Sequence record: OZ035799.1
DNA from: Justusliebigvirus alia
Length of the DNA: 64,000 nt
Strand: one strand, 5' to 3'
A program made the position numbers and the translations under genes. The notes under the pieces were generated by a model. The model saw only the letters and a program-made list of their open reading frames with translations. It ran no database searches and had not been told where the DNA came from. Below are positions 21,191-38,372 of the stretch, in pieces. Each line of letters opens with the position of its first letter. Within the stretch, counting starts at the first letter, position 1.

Positions 21191-23350
21191 ATGAAACAGG
21201 CTATTTTTACTGTAACTCGAAATACGAGAGTAAATGCCAGTTCATTCAGCTATAAGACCGTCGATGGAACGGCGGTCGCTGGTAGAGATTATGTAGCTAA
21301 ACAGGGAACAGTAACGTTCCCTTCTGATGCAGATTCTGCTACTGTAGTGGTTGATGTATATGAACGTCCGGCAAACTCTTTAGATCTTTATTTTACTCTT
21401 GAGATTACTAGCATAAGTCAAAATAACATGATGATCAATGAAGAAATTCGTTGTGTTATTACGACTGATCAATCGAATACAACCCCGCTAACTTGGCCTG
21501 TTGTGAAGTCTAGAATGTTTGATCCTAAGTTTTGGACAATAGATTCTCAAGCAACAGAGAGTTGTTCTATTATCTCTAATGGTGATTCTTTCACAGCAAG
21601 AATGGTTAATAGGACAGTGGCTGGTCTTGCTGGGATTATTTGGTCAACTTACGATAAATATGATCACAAAGGATTAGGCTACCAAGAACATTCTGACTTA
21701 AGTAAAGAGAAACTTTGGTTTAAAATGGAACTTAGTCAAGGTGTTCCTGGATTAAAAGAAGAAAAATTAATACCATCCTTAACAGTGACACTGAAGGATG
21801 AAACAGTTCATTATGTATCTCTAAACTTTTATGCAGAAGAAGTTTCAGAAGATGGTAAGACAGCAACAATCAAACTAGATTTCTCAAATTTAAAATCTGG
21901 GCCAGAAAATGATATTGTTGTTGACACTACACAGATAGATAATATGTTCTTCTCCTTGATCTCCACAAGGTATCAAGAAATTGAAGATATTATTCCTGTA
22001 GACAATGTGGATCTTTCCTTTAAGTTTACCATACTGGAGCCTGATACTGGTTACAGTATGATGAATATGGGTAATTTAAATGTTCCGGCGCACACCATAA
22101 GAATGTGTACATCTTATGATGATATGTATAACCTAACCCCGGAGCGAGTTATTTCTAACACCTATAGATTAGGTTATAGAGATATGATTAACCATTATAA
22201 TGGTATGTCACACTATTATCAATTTAGTTGGGATGCTGGCTCTAATAAATGGGCTTTGAACAGAACAGAATATTTAAACCCAGCAACAGAAGCCTGGTTT
22301 GATAATTTCCACGCTAATGCAAAAGCTATGGGCTACACAGTAATGAACTCCTTAAGTTTTGAACTTATGAGTACAGTGTGTCCTGTAGAATGGGTACAAC
22401 ATACTTGGAATGATGATCTGGCTGCTACAGGTTATGAGCCACCAAGTTATGTTTTATCGCCTTCAATTGATGAAGGGATGAATTATTTACAAGGTGTAAT
22501 AAATAAGATAGCTTCTATATCCGCTGCTAATGATCTTCCGGTTATTATTCAGGTTGGTGAACCGTGGTGGTGGTATAACACAGCTACCAATCTACCGTGT
22601 ATTTATGATTATACAACCAAAGTTGCATTTAATAATGAAACTGGATTATATGCACAAGATGTTGGTACAGTTAAGAATTATAAAACTGGTACACCATATG
22701 ATGAATATTATGCATTCCTATCTAAAACATTAGGACTGCGTGTTGCTAAATTTGCAACAGATACTAGATTAGCATATCCTGGAGCAAAAGTTACATTGTT
22801 ACCATTTGTACCATCCATCTTAGGTAACGGTATGATGGAATTTGTTAACTTCCCTAAAGATTATTATATCCCAGAAAACTTTGACTTTTATTGTTCAGAA
22901 TGTTATGATTGGTTGTTGGAAGGTAAGATGGAAAGATCTTTTGACGCTATCACAATACCTAATGAGCAACTAGGTTTTAGTTATGATAAGATACATTATC
23001 TTGCAGGGTTTGTTCCAGATGCAACTCTAGCACCATTATATGGCTTTGATCCTGAATCAAACTATAGGACATATTTGTGGAAAATGATTATAGGTAATAT
23101 TGTATTGAATGACCAGAAGTTTGTTGGTTTATATCAATACATATGGGCTTATCCACAAATAATGCATGATTCAATAACTGTTCTTAATTCAAAATCCCAA
23201 GTTTTTTATATGGGTAATGTGCCTTTGAATTGCTATTTGCAAGATATCACTCTTAAACAGGTAAATGTTACGATTGCCACCATAAGTGGAATTACATTAG
23301 CCACTAAATCTGGAGAAGATTTAGTAACAACACAAAAATTTTATATATAG
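21191..23350 (+). CDS. Large structural protein (baseplate or fibre-associated)
   Basis: 719 aa ORF between baseplate genes and the first tailspike. Confidence 0.4.
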   Translation: MKQAIFTVTRNTRVNASSFSYKTVDGTAVAGRDYVAKQGTVTFPSDADSATVVVDVYERPANSLDLYFTLEITSISQNNMMINEEIRCVITTDQSNTTPLTWPVVKSRMFDPKFWTIDSQATESCSIISNGDSFTARMVNRTVAGLAGIIWSTYDKYDHKGLGYQEHSDLSKEKLWFKMELSQGVPGLKEEKLIPSLTVTLKDETVHYVSLNFYAEEVSEDGKTATIKLDFSNLKSGPENDIVVDTTQIDNMFFSLISTRYQEIEDIIPVDNVDLSFKFTILEPDTGYSMMNMGNLNVPAHTIRMCTSYDDMYNLTPERVISNTYRLGYRDMINHYNGMSHYYQFSWDAGSNKWALNRTEYLNPATEAWFDNFHANAKAMGYTVMNSLSFELMSTVCPVEWVQHTWNDDLAATGYEPPSYVLSPSIDEGMNYLQGVINKIASISAANDLPVIIQVGEPWWWYNTATNLPCIYDYTTKVAFNNETGLYAQDVGTVKNYKTGTPYDEYYAFLSKTLGLRVAKFATDTRLAYPGAKVTLLPFVPSILGNGMMEFVNFPKDYYIPENFDFYCSECYDWLLEGKMERSFDAITIPNEQLGFSYDKIHYLAGFVPDATLAPLYGFDPESNYRTYLWKMIIGNIVLNDQKFVGLYQYIWAYPQIMHDSITVLNSKSQVFYMGNVPLNCYLQDITLKQVNVTIATISGITLATKSGEDLVTTQKFYI

Positions 23351-32402: not shown

Positions 32403-34364
32403 GTGATTTTAACACGTCCAAATAGTGCCATTGCAGACATGGTAGAGTCTCGCTATAGAAAGCGTAGAAGTTTTGCAAGTGGTTTTACCTTAAGAGATGC
32501 TCGTGAAGCATTGCTCTTTGAAACTGACGGTAACTACTATCAGTGGAAAGGTTCTCTACCTAAAGTTGTACCTGCTAACTCTACTCCTACATCTACTGGA
32601 GGGATTTCAGATACAGCTTGGAAAAATGTGGGTAATGCAGATGACATTGCTCAAATAGAATCAGAATTAGATGCTATTGAAGCTGAAATTGAAGATCTTA
32701 GAGAATCCATTCCAGAAGCTGGTAAATCAGCTTACCAGATTGCCGTAGACAATGGTTTCCAAGGTACTGAGACAGAGTGGTTGGCTTCTTTAAAAGGTGA
32801 TCCAGGTGCTCCATTAAAGCTGCTAGGGACACTATCTAATACCAACCAATTACCTACAACTGGAAACAATGCAGGAGATGCATGGATTGTAGGCGAGAAT
32901 ATGTATGCTTGGGATGGTACTGCTTGGAGAAAAGTAAACTCACAGGGGCCAGAAGGTAAATCAGCTTATCAAGTTTGGCTTGCAGCAGGAAACCAAGGTA
33001 CAGAACTAGATTATCTTGCTTCAATTAAAGGTGATAAAGGGGAACCTGGCCCAGAGGGGCCACAAGGTGTACCAGGTAATAATGCTAATGGTTTTGATTA
33101 CCAAGGTGCAGCTAATTCCGTTTCAGATCTTCCTTCTGCATCTCCTGGAAACACATCTCAAGCATGGAGTATTGGTACATATCTATACGTGTCAAACGGT
33201 GTAGAATGGATCAATATGGGCGCTATAGTGGGGCCAAAAGGAGATAAAGGCGACAAAGGAGATAAGGGTAACACTGGTGATTCTGCTTATCAAGTCTGGT
33301 TAAATGCTGGTAACGTTGGTACTATTGACGAATATATTGCCTCTCTGAAAGGAGAAAAAGGTGATAAGGGAGACAAGGGTGATCAAGGTGAGCAGGGTAT
33401 ACAAGGCTTGACGGGGCCAACTGGTGCAGGGTTGACAATTATTGATATTCTGACTGACACTTCTGAACTACCACAAACTGGAGAAGATGGTGATGGTTAT
33501 CTGATCAATAATGAACTTTGGGTCTGGTTGCAAGGAGCCACAGAGTGGACAAACGTTGGTCGTTTAGCTGGTACTCCAATCACTGCAAAAGGACACGTTG
33601 CGTCTGCAAGTGCACTTCCTCCTACATCCAATTACGGTGATGCTTATTTGACGGAAGATACAGGTCATCTTTACATTTACACCTATGATGAACAAACTCA
33701 AACTGCTGAATATGTAGATATGGGTAGTTTGAAAGGTGATAAGGGTGAGAAAGGTGACGCTGGTACTAACGGTACGGATGGTGCAACTTGGATTGTTAAA
33801 ACAACAGATCCAATTTCTAGTGATGGTAAACAAGGTGATTATGCCTTTAATATCTCCACTGGTGAGGTGTTCTTAAAAACATCTGCAACTGCCTGGACTT
33901 CTCAAGGTACACTGCCTAGCATCACAGATGCACCTAGTGACGGTAAGATCTATGCTCGTAAAGATGGAGCATGGGAAGAACTCACTAGTTCTGTAGATGG
34001 TCAAGATATAGTTCCAACAAAAGTAACAACTAATTTTATAGAGGTTACAGCATACACCAACAACTCTGTTACAGGTGACTGGACACCTCCAGGAACACAT
34101 AACATGAATGTGTTGAATCTTACTGGTAACGCTACTATAAAAGCATGGCCTGGTGTCGAAGATAGTACAAAACCTAAACCATTCTCTGCAATAGTTTATC
34201 TTATCCAAGATGCCACTGGAGGTCGTACTGTTACTTTAGATCCATCTTACAAAGTAATTGGTTCTAGTGATATTAATACAGATCCTAACGGAGTAACAAT
34301 ACTACAACTAACATATTGTGGTGTTGGCGATTACGTGGATGCTATTGTTGCTAAACGCACATAA
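32403..34364 (+). CDS. Tail fibre with collagen-like G-X-Y repeats and phage fibre repeats
   Basis: Three copies of a ~30 aa module (KSAYQIAVDNGFQGTETEWLASLKG, KSAYQVWLAAGNQGTELDYLASIKG, DSAYQVWLNAGNVGTIDEYIASLKG), each followed by collagen-like GDKGDKGDKG or GEKGDKGDKGDQGEQGIQG. Confidence 0.6.
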   Translation: MILTRPNSAIADMVESRYRKRRSFASGFTLRDAREALLFETDGNYYQWKGSLPKVVPANSTPTSTGGISDTAWKNVGNADDIAQIESELDAIEAEIEDLRESIPEAGKSAYQIAVDNGFQGTETEWLASLKGDPGAPLKLLGTLSNTNQLPTTGNNAGDAWIVGENMYAWDGTAWRKVNSQGPEGKSAYQVWLAAGNQGTELDYLASIKGDKGEPGPEGPQGVPGNNANGFDYQGAANSVSDLPSASPGNTSQAWSIGTYLYVSNGVEWINMGAIVGPKGDKGDKGDKGNTGDSAYQVWLNAGNVGTIDEYIASLKGEKGDKGDKGDQGEQGIQGLTGPTGAGLTIIDILTDTSELPQTGEDGDGYLINNELWVWLQGATEWTNVGRLAGTPITAKGHVASASALPPTSNYGDAYLTEDTGHLYIYTYDEQTQTAEYVDMGSLKGDKGEKGDAGTNGTDGATWIVKTTDPISSDGKQGDYAFNISTGEVFLKTSATAWTSQGTLPSITDAPSDGKIYARKDGAWEELTSSVDGQDIVPTKVTTNFIEVTAYTNNSVTGDWTPPGTHNMNVLNLTGNATIKAWPGVEDSTKPKPFSAIVYLIQDATGGRTVTLDPSYKVIGSSDINTDPNGVTILQLTYCGVGDYVDAIVAKRT

Positions 34365-34366
34365 TC

Positions 34367-34392
34367 AAAGCCCCTTCGGGGGCTTATTATTT
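34367..34392 (+). terminator. Rho-independent terminator
   Basis: AAGCCCC-TTCG-GGGGCTT followed by ATTATTT. Confidence 0.6.
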
Positions 34393-34403
34393 AAGGAGAT
34401 TAA

Positions 34404-37217
34404 ATGTATCCTATTCCTTTATTTATGTCAACAACATCAGCTTCAGTAGTAACAGCTACATCTATAACCACTTCATCTATTGGTATTGCAATAGTTGGTA
34501 GTAAAAAGCAACTGACATACACAGTTTCACCGGAAGATGGTGCGTTATTTGATATAGCTTTTTCATCTTCAGATAATACCAAAATGGTTATAGATAATAG
34601 TGGTATGATGGAGTTTGTTGCCGAAGGTGGTTTTGATGCAATAATGACAGCTAAAAATAATTTAGGTGCTGTCTTAACTGATCAATCTGGGGGTTATGCT
34701 TCAGAATTAAGCGTGTACACTGAAAGTCTATCAGCTATGGATGTAGGCACTACTCAACAGTTGGTTGCTACAATCAGTCCAGAAGGTGCTAAAGATCTTC
34801 CAGACATGGTAATTACGTACACCACAACAGATCCAGAAGTAGCTACTGTAAGCCCTACAGGATTAATAACTGCTCTTAAAGATGGCAATTGCCGTATAGG
34901 TTGTACTGCAACGTATCAAGGAACAGTTGTGGCCTCTGATAGTTCTTATTTAGGTGTTAATGCTATTCCTGTTATTTCTAATGTAACAGCCGTGGCAAAC
35001 AGCTATGGAGACGTTCGTGTTGCTTGGGATGTAACTGATCCTCTAGATGGTGATACTTATACTGTAGAAGTATTAGATTTAAGTAATAACAGTGTCCAGT
35101 GGACTACAACAACCACGAATACTTACGCCTACTTTGATATCTCTGACTCTATTCCTCTTTATGGGTTTGCTCCAACATACCTTAAAATTAGCGTTAAGAG
35201 CACCAAAGCAGCAGCCGTTATCTTTAATAACTCAATAGCTACAGATGATTCATTCATTAAAGAAGTTATTGTCTTTGCTGGACAAGATAACGTAAATGCA
35301 CACTTTACAGAACTATCTGGTGCAAATAAAGCAGCAATGAGTAGCACAACAGCCCGTAATGCATATGCTACGCAACGTGGTTTAGCAAATGCTGAAGTTC
35401 TTCCGTTAAATACAGCTTCTGGATCATCAGCAGCAGATAAATATGCTGACGATAAAGCTGGAACAGGTACACCAGACAACTACTGGTATGATCTGGATAA
35501 CACAGCAGATGGGCCATGCTTAACTAACTTTATCACTAAAGTCACACCTTATGCAAGTAAGGTTAAAGCCATTATTTGGGGACAAGGTGAAAATGATGCT
35601 GTATCAGCATCTTCAACTGTTGCAGGTAGATACAGTAACACTACACGTTACCATGATGCTACGATAGCTATCTTTGATAAGATGCGTACAATAGTTCCTG
35701 CTTCTCAAGCAAAAATTGTTTGGCAGATCCTGGGACGTTCTTATTTATATGGTGTAGAAGTTAATGGTGTGGATTGGCAGAAGTACAGAAATGTACAAAG
35801 AACCATCTCTACAGCACGTGATGATGTTATCATTGGTTCTTGGGTAGATGGTGCTGAACGTTACAGTGGTTATGTTTATGAAGAAGGTATTGATGGTCGT
35901 ATCCATTATATTTCTTCTGTATACCAAACAGCAGCTACAAAACTTGCTAAATCAGCAGCAGACGGTACAGACTTAACATCAACGTCACCTGTTTGGGTTG
36001 ATATGGCTGTTCCAACTGGAGCAACAGCTACTTCCCAACCTAATCAAGATACAATTTTAGCATGGGATGCTCAAGGCTATAGTAAACACTACTTCCGTAA
36101 TATTAACGTCTTAACCGCATCTGTATTAACTGAACAAACGCTTAATACGAACAGTTATACGTTTACCTATGCAGATCAAGTAGAACAATATGGTTTTGCA
36201 GCAGGAACTACTGTATTTGATGTTGCATATTATGACGAAGCAAATGATGTGTTATCTCCTTTAGTACGTTTTAATGTTAATGTTACACCAGGAACTGTCG
36301 TGATGGATTATGATTTGACACAAGAAACTCTTCCAGCAGATGTGCGCGTAAACAGGAGCAACCATTATGCTAGGGCTTCTGGAGATATCCTTGTACCGAC
36401 AGAGGTTTCTGCTCCTATAGCACCTTTAGAATATATTGGTACAACGCCACAAGGTAGACGTGTTGTAGCAGCCAGCCGTACATATATCTTTATCAACAAT
36501 AACTTGACAACAGCTTCCCCGTGGTTGAAGACGAACTTGACAGTTACAGCATCAACAATCAACTCTCCGGTTGGAACTACAGCTAACACTTACAAGTTAA
36601 CACCTTCTACAACTTCAGGACAACATATTTTATCAGCGGTGAATACAGCTTCTGATATTACAGCAGGTAAACAATGGGCTGCATCTGTATTCTTGAAACC
36701 AGACGGGATCACTAAAGTCAAGCTCAAATTGACTTCAGGAGATGAGGTTAACGAAGGGACTTATGATCTTGAAGCTGGAACATTTACAGGCACAGATGCA
36801 AATATGATCGACATGGGGAATGGTTGGTATCGTGTAATCTTACATAAAGTAACGATTGCTAAACAAGCCTCTATGACTTATGAGATTATAGCTTTGAATG
36901 CCAGTGGATCAGACACTTTTGCAGGAGACGGCACTGGAGGTCTTATTGCTTGGGTTCCACAACTTGAAATGGGTGATATGACAAACCCAGTTTGGGCGGG
37001 GACACCATTTGTTTGTACTTATGCACGAGACACAGATAGTGCTGCCACCTTCACTATTCCTAAGAACGGACACACTGGCGTGGATATTTACCACACAGAT
37101 GGAACTGTGCAAAGAGAGATTTTCACTGGCACAGCTACTACTTGGATGTTGTCATTCAACGCCGCAAGTGCGGATTGGGGATCGAAATTCATTTCTGGTT
37201 TGAAATATTACGACTAA
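34404..37217 (+). CDS. Receptor-binding protein with Ig-like (Big_2) domain and SASA-like carbohydrate esterase domain
   Basis: Big_2-like segment (VATVSPTGLITALKDGNCRIGCTA). Esterase motifs FAGQDNVNAHF (GQSN-like) and IIWGQGENDA (WxQGExD-like), typical of sialate O-acetylesterase (SASA) family. 937 aa. Confidence 0.55.
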   Translation: MYPIPLFMSTTSASVVTATSITTSSIGIAIVGSKKQLTYTVSPEDGALFDIAFSSSDNTKMVIDNSGMMEFVAEGGFDAIMTAKNNLGAVLTDQSGGYASELSVYTESLSAMDVGTTQQLVATISPEGAKDLPDMVITYTTTDPEVATVSPTGLITALKDGNCRIGCTATYQGTVVASDSSYLGVNAIPVISNVTAVANSYGDVRVAWDVTDPLDGDTYTVEVLDLSNNSVQWTTTTTNTYAYFDISDSIPLYGFAPTYLKISVKSTKAAAVIFNNSIATDDSFIKEVIVFAGQDNVNAHFTELSGANKAAMSSTTARNAYATQRGLANAEVLPLNTASGSSAADKYADDKAGTGTPDNYWYDLDNTADGPCLTNFITKVTPYASKVKAIIWGQGENDAVSASSTVAGRYSNTTRYHDATIAIFDKMRTIVPASQAKIVWQILGRSYLYGVEVNGVDWQKYRNVQRTISTARDDVIIGSWVDGAERYSGYVYEEGIDGRIHYISSVYQTAATKLAKSAADGTDLTSTSPVWVDMAVPTGATATSQPNQDTILAWDAQGYSKHYFRNINVLTASVLTEQTLNTNSYTFTYADQVEQYGFAAGTTVFDVAYYDEANDVLSPLVRFNVNVTPGTVVMDYDLTQETLPADVRVNRSNHYARASGDILVPTEVSAPIAPLEYIGTTPQGRRVVAASRTYIFINNNLTTASPWLKTNLTVTASTINSPVGTTANTYKLTPSTTSGQHILSAVNTASDITAGKQWAASVFLKPDGITKVKLKLTSGDEVNEGTYDLEAGTFTGTDANMIDMGNGWYRVILHKVTIAKQASMTYEIIALNASGSDTFAGDGTGGLIAWVPQLEMGDMTNPVWAGTPFVCTYARDTDSAATFTIPKNGHTGVDIYHTDGTVQREIFTGTATTWMLSFNAASADWGSKFISGLKYYD

Positions 37218-37250
37218 TAAAAAAGGAGCCTATTGGCTCCTTTTCTTTTA
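37216..37250. terminator. Bidirectional terminator at the point where the two gene blocks converge
   Basis: AGGAGCC-TATT-GGCTCCT flanked by an A-run upstream and a T-run downstream. Genes switch from plus to minus strand here. Confidence 0.7.
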
Positions 37251-37252
37251 TC

Positions 37253-37684
37253 TTAATCAGTGAAAATTACGCTTACATCTTCTTTAGAAAAGAGTTTATG
37301 ATCTTCACCTTTTGTCTCAAGAGTTTCATACAGGTTAAGAAGTTCTGAAACATCTTTCTCTACCAGTTTCTTCAATGTTGCAATTTTCTGTTTGCGACTC
37401 TTAATACGTTCAGCTACAACCTTACGTTGGTATCCAGCAGTACGATAACCTGAGAAAGTTACACCAGTGAGACTTGCAGTTACAGGATCGTAATGACGTT
37501 CAATCTGAAATTTATTAAAAGGTACAGCGTCATCACGAATAATCTTCCCGCCATTACTTACTTGACGAAGACCAGTAACTTGTTCTAGTCGTGCCATAGA
37601 AATCTTTGGAGACAGACCAGAGTCCAGGTTCATACCATTGTTAATCAGTGCTTTCAGGGTGATTTTGCTGTTCAGTGTACTCAT
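37253..37684 (-). CDS. Hypothetical protein
   Basis: 143 aa ORF with GGAGGA RBS located inside the 3' end of the methyltransferase gene; no recognised motif. Confidence 0.45.
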   Translation of the reverse strand: MSTLNSKITLKALINNGMNLDSGLSPKISMARLEQVTGLRQVSNGGKIIRDDAVPFNKFQIERHYDPVTASLTGVTFSGYRTAGYQRKVVAERIKSRKQKIATLKKLVEKDVSELLNLYETLETKGEDHKLFSKEDVSVIFTD

Positions 37685-38372
37685 TTAGTCGTTCCTCCGC
37701 TTGCTTAAAAATATTTACATCGGCTTCACAGCCTAAGTATTCTCTACCTGTTAAAAGTGCCGCAACTTGTGTTGTTGCACTTCCAGAGAAGAAGTCTAAG
37801 ACTACATCTCCTTCGTTGGTGTGTATATTAATAAGGTCACAAAACAAAGTCAAGTGTTTTTGTGTTGGATGAAAACGATCTGCTCCTTGATAGATAGGAT
37901 ACTCAAACACACCCTTATGGTAGGAAGCATTGAAGGTTGGCTTAGAACCTTTAACACAAACAATAGCCATTTCTTTAGCGTTACTAAGATAGTTAACACC
38001 ACTGTTGATGGGTACAGGGTTTGTTTTAATCCATTCGATAGTACGGAACATACGAAAACCAAGCGGTTCAAGGATTTCACGTAGCTCCTGGATCTTCCAG
38101 ATATCATACCAAACTATGCAAGTACCACCTTTTCTAAGCACCCTATAGGCTTCTTTGAATACTTCTTTAAAGTAAGGAATATCTACAACATCCCAATCAC
38201 CAAAGTTGTAAGATACACGGAATCTATCCGTATCTTTTCCAGTAGGCTCTCCAGACTGAAAATTTGTGTCACGAGAAATAGCATATGGTGGGTCAGTAAG
38301 AATCAAATCTACACTATTGCTTTCGAGGGTTTGCAGGTAGTTTAATGCAGTGTTGTTTACAAATTCGCTCAT
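37641..38372 (-). CDS. DNA methyltransferase (amino-methyltransferase, DPPY motif; N6-adenine or N4-cytosine)
   Basis: Motif IV LILTDPPYA precedes motif I VVLDFFSGSATT (beta-class order). No restriction endonuclease partner seen, so it looks like an orphan methyltransferase. Confidence 0.8.
   Translation of the reverse strand: MSEFVNNTALNYLQTLESNSVDLILTDPPYAISRDTNFQSGEPTGKDTDRFRVSYNFGDWDVVDIPYFKEVFKEAYRVLRKGGTCIVWYDIWKIQELREILEPLGFRMFRTIEWIKTNPVPINSGVNYLSNAKEMAIVCVKGSKPTFNASYHKGVFEYPIYQGADRFHPTQKHLTLFCDLINIHTNEGDVVLDFFSGSATTQVAALLTGREYLGCEADVNIFKQAEERLNEYTEQQNHPESTD

Follow-up and report, generated by a model that had tools for sequence, protein, structure and literature searches.

In a 64,000-nucleotide (nt) stretch of Justusliebigvirus alia DNA (sequence record OZ035799.1; the window in what follows), an open reading frame (ORF) at positions 34404 to 37217 (+ strand, ATG start) encodes a protein of 937 amino acids (aa). 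We found that the centre of this protein, aa ~283 to 530, is a divergent SASA-type SGNH domain, with a resemblance far beyond chance. Judged from the alignments, its GQDN motif is not equivalent to the GQSN of carbohydrate O-acetylesterases, and the catalytic serine is replaced by aspartate. We consider it probable that the ORF product is an accessory tail adhesin, in which a pair of Big_2 domains provides attachment or weak adhesion, a shaft like part of gp65 of phage N4 offers a glycan-binding pocket that does not cleave, and the C-terminal domain gives specificity. This differs from a preliminary description of the window, made from its letters alone, which had read the protein as a virion-borne esterase that deacetylates surface polysaccharide. 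The region and its counterpart in Justusliebigvirus alia OZ035770.1 are 100% identical and share their coordinates; this phage is a phi92-like E. coli myovirus in the Stephanstirmvirinae.

A serine-to-aspartate change in the central domain

The central domain (35250 to 35993, aa 283 to 530; features are on the + strand unless stated otherwise) could be placed by both structure and profile. An AlphaFold2 model of aa 275 to 545 (pLDDT, 83.7; pTM, 0.85) showed alternating beta and alpha elements. Foldseek comparison of this model with the PDB gave 75 matches at E ≤ 1e-3, and SGNH-fold enzymes made up nearly all of the 50 matches listed, including 1ZMB, 2APJ, 7KMM, dog SIAE (8F9P), and many GDSL esterases (E = 1e-6 to 1e-4). 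A 17-sequence family profile matched 1ZMB (7e-7), 2APJ (1.3e-6), 7KMM (9e-5), and 9H4U (5.5e-3), and its alignment with the solved structures placed their GQSNM at block I and QGESD at block III. Relatives of the domain were collected by an exhaustive HMMER search of representatives, which yielded 77; with the isolated domain as query, a word-indexed search gave no more than 2 fragments, and a 6-sequence alignment query gave 5. The Pfam SASA family (PF03629) was matched by 41 of the 68 relatives scanned (E ≤ 1e-3). The ORF product itself scored 14.3 bits (E = 0.032), below the gathering cutoff of 24.8, with a match limited to the block III region at aa 374 to 433 (profile positions 106 to 158). 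The SASA-type assignment made in the preliminary description therefore stands for fold and family, but the protein itself does not reach the Pfam threshold.

In SASA, CE6, and CE20 enzymes, the nucleophile is the Ser of GQSN(M), the oxyanion hole is formed by the block II Gly and the block III Gln/Asn, and the block V His serves as the base (PMC12313940). Published motifs are GQSNM/SGGTAI/YQGESD for 2APJ, GQSNM/EGGSSI/HQGESD for 1ZMB, and GQSNA for NanS (3PT5) (PMC10792757). Both motifs that had suggested an esterase are present, FAGQDNVNAHF at nt 35274 to 35306 (aa 291 to 301) and IIWGQGENDA at nt 35571 to 35600 (aa 390 to 399), and the second contains a kept block III, WGQGEND (35577 to 35597, aa 392 to 398). 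The first motif, however, does not carry the signature it was taken for: block I reads GQDNV (35280 to 35294, aa 293 to 297), with Asp295 (GAT, 35286 to 35288) in the catalytic Ser column of GQSN. Asp295 occupied this column in every alignment made (70+ relatives). GQSN itself is found in nearly all of the 77 relatives that align across block I, the exceptions being mostly extra or degenerate copies in multidomain sheath proteins, and all 32 phi92-like cluster representatives have VFAGQDNVNAHF (GQDN). A sequencing error at the Ser codon was ruled out, since GAT is at least two nucleotide changes away from any Ser codon and the same residue occurs in dozens of independent genomes.

Beyond block I, most of the catalytic residues are retained. 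Blocks II and III align with the family consensus, block II being SGSSAA (35418 to 35435, aa 339 to 344) with the oxyanion-hole Gly region kept, and the block V His is kept as His501 in RIHY (35904 to 35906). Phi92-like proteins match the family consensus at Gln294 and Asn296 of block I, at the Gly of block II, at QGEND, and at His501. Asp497 lies at −4 from His501, not at −3 as in DxxH, and is Ala in 4 of the 32 close cluster representatives; NanS-type SASA enzymes likewise lack the block V Asp. Identity across the central domain is ~47 to 50% to the nearest Ser-bearing relatives and ~25 to 40% to more distant ones. The domain thus shares with the esterases 1ZMB, 2APJ, NanS (3PT5), XacXaeA (7KMM), and SIAE (8F9P) the fold, GQxN, a GGS-like block II, QGExD, and the block V His. 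It departs from them in the Asp-for-Ser change, the subthreshold Pfam score, long insertions, and its setting in a phage tail protein.

These comparisons suggest that the SGNH domain descends from carbohydrate O-acetylesterases. With Asp295 in place of the nucleophilic Ser, a Ser-acyl-enzyme cycle would most likely be impossible, and the domain would be a pseudo-esterase. Deacetylation of surface polysaccharide by a virion-borne enzyme is consequently not supported, because that proposal treats GQDN as GQSN, while the catalytic Ser is missing and its replacement is fixed in all 32 phi92-like representatives.

A sister group provides further information on the history of the substitution. Av-05-like proteins (645 to 647 aa) are 41 to 44% identical to the ORF product over aa 1 to 628 and have GGDN at block I. 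In these proteins the block II Gly is lost (ATSCA), block III reads SLGEQD (Q to L, N to Q), and Gln has taken the place of the block V His in two of the three representatives. In a neighbour-joining tree, a distance-based method and the only one applied, the phi92-like and Av-05-like domains form one clade (bootstrap, 465/500) nested among Ser-bearing relatives, a position that fits a single ancient Ser-to-Asp event. On these data the simplest history would be one ancient Ser-to-Asp change, followed by decay of the remaining active site in the Av-05-like lineage, and such decay is the pattern expected after loss of catalysis. Given the tree and its bootstrap value, independent origins of GQDN in the phi92-like and GGDN in the Av-05-like proteins were judged less parsimonious.

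Public records already reflect the esterase-like similarity: GenBank names for orthologues include "tail carbohydrate esterase" (ALITA, KMB37), besides "tail protein," "lateral tail fiber protein" (BASEL), and "non-contractile tail sheath" (KKE7M). Taken at face value, that name, the SGNH/SASA fold, and the kept blocks II, III, and V of the phi92-like lineage would fit an active virion-borne carbohydrate O-acetylesterase acting on O-antigen, capsule, or the N4 glycan receptor (NGR), with Asp295 as the nucleophile or as a general base activating water. Phages are well known to use esterase tailspikes, examples being those of G7C (gp63.1) and Moo19/B2, which share with the ORF product the concept of an SGNH-fold domain on a virion appendage that contacts polysaccharide. 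These tailspikes, however, are reportedly active deacetylases with an intact catalytic Ser; they were absent from the best 50 of the 75 Foldseek matches, and no sequence relationship to them was found. Asp does act as a nucleophile alongside His in another fold, that of the alpha/beta-hydrolase dehalogenases and epoxide hydrolases, but no SGNH hydrolase is known to us in which Asp takes this role. We regard an active esterase as quite unlikely, given that the defining nucleophile is gone in every member of the clade, the remaining catalytic residues decay in the Av-05-like sister group, the Pfam SASA score is subthreshold, and the gene is broken in phi92 (see below). Moreover, the sole catalogued Ser-to-Asp case is noncatalytic: the OSK domain of Oskar (PDB 5A4A) is an SGNH-fold pseudoenzyme with GDDFM and Asp at the nucleophile position (PMC10792757). 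OSK resembles the central domain in its SGNH-like fold, in this Asp, and in having a noncatalytic function where the domain is predicted to have one. It belongs, however, to an unrelated insect germ-plasm RNA-binding lineage and has lost the other catalytic residues, which the central domain keeps.

Modules shared with N4 gp65

The closest relative of known structure is gp65 of coliphage N4, a noncontractile tail sheath and receptor-binding protein of ten domains that forms a sheath with gp64 and holds the tail plug (PMC13434306). Structures of gp65 (9LC0, 9YF4/5, 9YFT) gave the best Foldseek match to the central domain (TMq, 0.74; E = 3e-12) as well as the best profile match (E = 6.8e-37 to 1e-42). 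The similarity extends beyond the SGNH-like domain. Sub-profiles showed aa 189 to 628 of the ORF product to be collinear with gp65 ~621 to 1061, covering beta-domain a (34968 to 35231, aa 189 to 276; homologous to gp65 ~621 to 688), the SGNH-like domain, and beta-domain b (36009 to 36287, aa 536 to 628; motif FTxxDQxxQYGF), which is homologous to the distal repeats of gp65. In one-sequence searches, the match of beta-domain a to gp65 621 to 688 was weak (iE, 1.6e-4), and beta-domain b matched repeats within 994 to 1364 (994 to 1061, 1085 to 1171, and 1203 to 1271) at iE values of 1e-10 to 4e-13. The SGNH-like sub-profile matched two gp65 segments, 440 to 598 and 760 to 977. In the PHROG collection, phrog_15324, a "tail sheath and receptor binding protein," matched aa 452 to 634 (E = 3e-38). 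The relationship went undetected by single-sequence phmmer, whether the ORF was searched against the PDB or gp65 against the ORFs of the window, and profiles and structure were needed to see it.

The two proteins therefore have in common the order beta-domain, SGNH-like domain, beta-domain, and each is a tail protein of an NGR-using E. coli phage. Unlike gp65, the ORF product has neither an NCTSP_N domain nor an NCTSP TIM barrel (no Pfam match), and it has Big_2 domains, another C-terminal module, and a contractile-tailed phage as its carrier. At block I, the first SGNH-like copy of gp65 keeps Ser (GES) where the ORF product has Asp. In the second copy, blocks I and III and the His are all gone, which sets a precedent for noncatalytic use of an SGNH module in phage tails. 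The first copy (EF056009, 15044 to 19192; aa 440 to 600) reads FAGESQ and WGQGDQDA, and the profile match to it stops near residue 600, before the expected position of the block V His. We found no discussion of esterase activity of gp65. Further relatives, among them P0038, P0039, P0045, and P0046, are N4-type sheath proteins with Pfam NCTSP_N and TIM-barrel_NCTSP domains, and they keep GQSN or GQSH.

A link between gp65 and phi92- and rV5-like phages has been published only for a 59- to 76-aa GMSHY segment in the phi92 gp142 homologue, a proposed NGR binder (bioRxiv 10.64898/2026.04.02.716166). In the window, the GMSHY motif lies at nt ~22202 in the ORF at 21191 to 23350 (+; 719 aa), a phi92 gp142-type tail protein that phmmer matched to gp65 with E = 1.4e-16. 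On these comparisons, which are of sequence and predicted structure, N4 gp65 has two distinct modules in common with this phage, each in a tail protein of its own. The homology of the SGNH arm, the second shared module, was not discussed in the literature that we read for this comparison.

Two polypeptides might on this basis do the job that gp65 does in one chain, with the ORF product acting as an NGR co-receptor beside the gp142-like TIM-barrel protein. Such an arrangement would fit the make-up of gp65, in which the GMSHY TIM-barrel segment occurs together with two SGNH-like domains, the direct fusion of both modules in P0038-type sheath proteins, and the dependence of Justusliebigvirus phages on NGR (PMC8669472, PMC11990801, bioRxiv 10.64898/2026.04.02.716166). 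We nevertheless hold it to be very unlikely. The phi92 copy is broken, and published comparative genomics gives NGR recognition to the gp142 homologue alone. When a phage collection was searched with tblastn, full-length (aa 1 to 628) matches fell almost entirely in phi92-like records and a few Av-05-like ones. From this distribution, rather than genome by genome, most NGR-dependent Vequintavirus phages appear to be without the gene, which argues against an essential NGR role.

Modular architecture and the proposed adhesin

The N-terminal part of the protein consists of two tandem Big_2 Ig-like domains (34452 to 34964, aa ~17 to 187) and is its most widely shared module. Pfam Big_2 (PF02368) was matched in two stretches, best at aa 112 to 170, with E = 1e-13 and 51.4 bits against a cutoff of 22.8; PHROG major-tail-protein/Ig families matched aa 10 to 212, and the phi92 record notes a "lambda protein V like fold" for this part. 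The preliminary description had the esterase-like domain fused behind Big_2, and the upstream position of Big_2 is borne out, but the fusion is not direct, since beta-domain a (aa ~189 to 276) lies between them. The Big_2 pair is a candidate virion-attachment or weak-adhesion part.

At the other end of the protein, the variable all-beta C-terminal domain (36288 to 37214, aa 629 to 937) is a candidate polysaccharide-binding specificity module. It is only ~62% identical between alleles, whereas the figure for aa 1 to 628 is ~98 to 99% and, across Justusliebigvirus phages, 95 to 99%. With phmmer, aa 622 to 881 matched the head-spike fibre Rcc01080 of RcGTA (E = 5.6e-14). A C-terminal profile matched Rcc01080 (6e-16) and the C-terminal appendage of gp17, the distal tail protein of Shigella phage Sf11 (PDB 9OCC, chain C; gp17 residues 163 to 455; E = 1.7e-27). 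Rcc01080 has been shown experimentally to bind the R. capsulatus capsule (PMC10218006; PMC7296036). As the gene lies in the tail-fibre module and the C-terminal domain is variable and homologous to a capsule-binding fibre, the earlier term "receptor-binding protein" is plausible for the ORF product. The homologous region, aa ~630 to 935, is in all three proteins part of a flexible peripheral appendage, but the carriers differ: a head-spike base for Rcc01080, the Dit ring of a siphovirus for Sf11 gp17, and here a Big_2/SGNH shaft. The matched part of Sf11 gp17 is an unmodelled "large extra appendage" whose function its authors call unknown; the shared homology to capsule-binding Rcc01080 suggests a glycan-binding role for it too. 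Foldseek matches of the C-terminal model to Pa193/E217 baseplate chains (TM ~0.29) were not relied on, given the low confidence of that model.

Modules of the protein occur in other combinations. The C-terminal domain is missing from the VEcB, phi92, and Av-05 types. In Phapecoctavirus proteins such as P0037, the same Big_2 N terminus and C-terminal domain flank an RCC1 propeller, and the Big_2 module is 60 to 72% identical in Phapecoctavirus proteins with a different middle part. Swaps of this kind, in the middle as at the variable C terminus, fit an adhesin built as a shaft plus a tip.

The gene is also disrupted in phi92 itself (FR775895.2, stretch 3501 to 5163), where a 218-nt deletion removes beta-domain a and shifts the frame; a second frameshift lies near aa 335, and the orthologue stops at aa ~628. 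Its annotation is split into gp152 and gp153, with the remark "no RBS identified; weak prodigal statistics." The break indicates that the gene is dispensable, at least on the laboratory host of phi92. The BME3 paper describes a 939-aa "tail fiber" that differs from phi92. In the ALITA record (PP359570.1, stretch 9001 to 11820), the gene is split into two coding sequences, a "tail carbohydrate esterase" of 720 aa and a "tail protein" of 172 aa, which suggests a frameshift or a sequencing error in the record. Parts of the gene are also matched, at 60 to 98% protein identity depending on the record, in entries named Campylobacter phage A110a/A145 (95 to 98%), Acinetobacter phage vB_AbaM_ABPW7, and Pseudomonas phage PsgM04F; either the hosts given there seem questionable or contamination may be involved.

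Taken together, we favour a modular, nonessential accessory adhesin or fibre composed of the Big_2 pair, a cassette like the gp65 arm, and a swappable, lectin-like C-terminal domain. Attachment or weak adhesion would fall to the Big_2 domains. With its pocket otherwise intact in the phi92-like lineage, the SGNH domain would still dock a surface glycan, which may be acetylated, but would leave it uncut, and it would double as a rigid spacer. The variable C-terminal domain would be the main determinant of host specificity. On the virion, such a protein would add reversible polysaccharide binding to a multivalent adsorption apparatus and would leave the receptor unmodified.

Several points weigh against this proposal. 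The other catalytic-block residues are all kept in the phi92-like lineage despite ~50% divergence from Ser-bearing relatives, which could mean that chemistry persists, for example with Asp as the nucleophile or as a general base with water. Glycan binding by the SGNH module is only a prediction, and the module could be purely structural. For the C-terminal domain, AlphaFold2 gave an all-beta model with low confidence (pLDDT, 51.8). No orthologue of the ORF is mentioned in the rV5 proteomics paper.

A purely structural cassette, serving as a spacer or assembly module with no function in its pocket, would leave binding to the Big_2 and C-terminal domains. The collinearity of aa 189 to 628 with gp65 621 to 1061 fits such a role, gp65 building a sheath round the tail tube; so do the Av-05-like proteins, which keep the domain though most pocket residues are lost, and the replacement of the middle module by an RCC1 propeller. 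We think it unlikely, as the pocket residues of the phi92-like lineage stand at consensus in a domain only ~47 to 50% identical to its nearest Ser-bearing relatives, which would hardly be expected unless selection acted on the pocket.

That the phi92-like lineage strictly keeps all remaining pocket residues also leaves room for a pocket in which Asp has a function of its own. The domain could then be an Asp/His SGNH enzyme acting on a nonester substrate, or a lectin that recognizes a free amino sugar (e.g., de-N-acetylated ManN/GlcN) through the carboxylate. In such a case, the deacetylase-like tail protein encoded at 21191 to 23350 could edit NGR or another glycan, and the ORF product could bind the edited product. 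We consider this highly improbable as well.

Genomic context and implications for annotation

The ORF is the final gene of the tail-fibre module. It is real and runs exactly from 34404 to 37217, as the preliminary description had it, with a ribosome-binding site (RBS), AAGGAG, at 34393 to 34398, 5 nt upstream of the ATG; an AGGAG RBS is likewise annotated for phi92 gp152. The gene is orthologous to phi92 gp152 plus gp153 and to bas61_0035, the "lateral tail fiber protein" of the BASEL collection, and phrog_32204 (tail protein) matches aa 1 to 628 with E = 0. Upstream lie genes for a colanidase-like tailspike and for a collagen-repeat fibre. The fibre gene, at 32403 to 34364 (+; 653 aa, phi92 gp151 type), has collagen-like GDKGDKGDKG and GxxGxx repeats and repeated ~60-aa units matching many PHROG tail-fibre families.

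Between the stop codon of this fibre gene (34362 to 34364) and the ORF, we read from the sequence a terminator-like hairpin, AAGCCCC-TTCG-GGGGCTT followed by a T-rich run (34368 to 34392), which the scan tool did not score. On the 3′ side, a hairpin terminator at 37221 to 37244, assigned to neither strand, is common to the ORF and to convergent minus-strand genes. The tail module ends here, where both the sign of the GC skew and the coding strand switch. Bracketed by these two hairpins, the gene resembles an insulated cassette appended to the tail operon, an arrangement that may mean lower or separately controlled expression. Directly downstream, on the opposite strand, lies a gene for a Dam-like N6-adenine methyltransferase (37641 to 38372, −) that overlaps the start of a 143-aa ORF (37253 to 37684).

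Esterase-bearing tail proteins are already known as a kind; what is new here is the reading as a Ser-to-Asp pseudo-esterase, together with the homology to the arm of N4 gp65. This is a modest refinement of tail-fibre annotation, and no major question is opened by it. Recognition of the Ser-to-Asp change reclassifies the SGNH domain as a probable pseudo-enzyme, and annotation from motif or fold, such as the label "tail carbohydrate esterase," would wrongly credit phi92-like phages that are therapeutic candidates with deacetylase activity. The presence of a second module shared with gp65 in phi92-like and Av-05-like myoviruses may help to dissect how these phages handle surface glycans.

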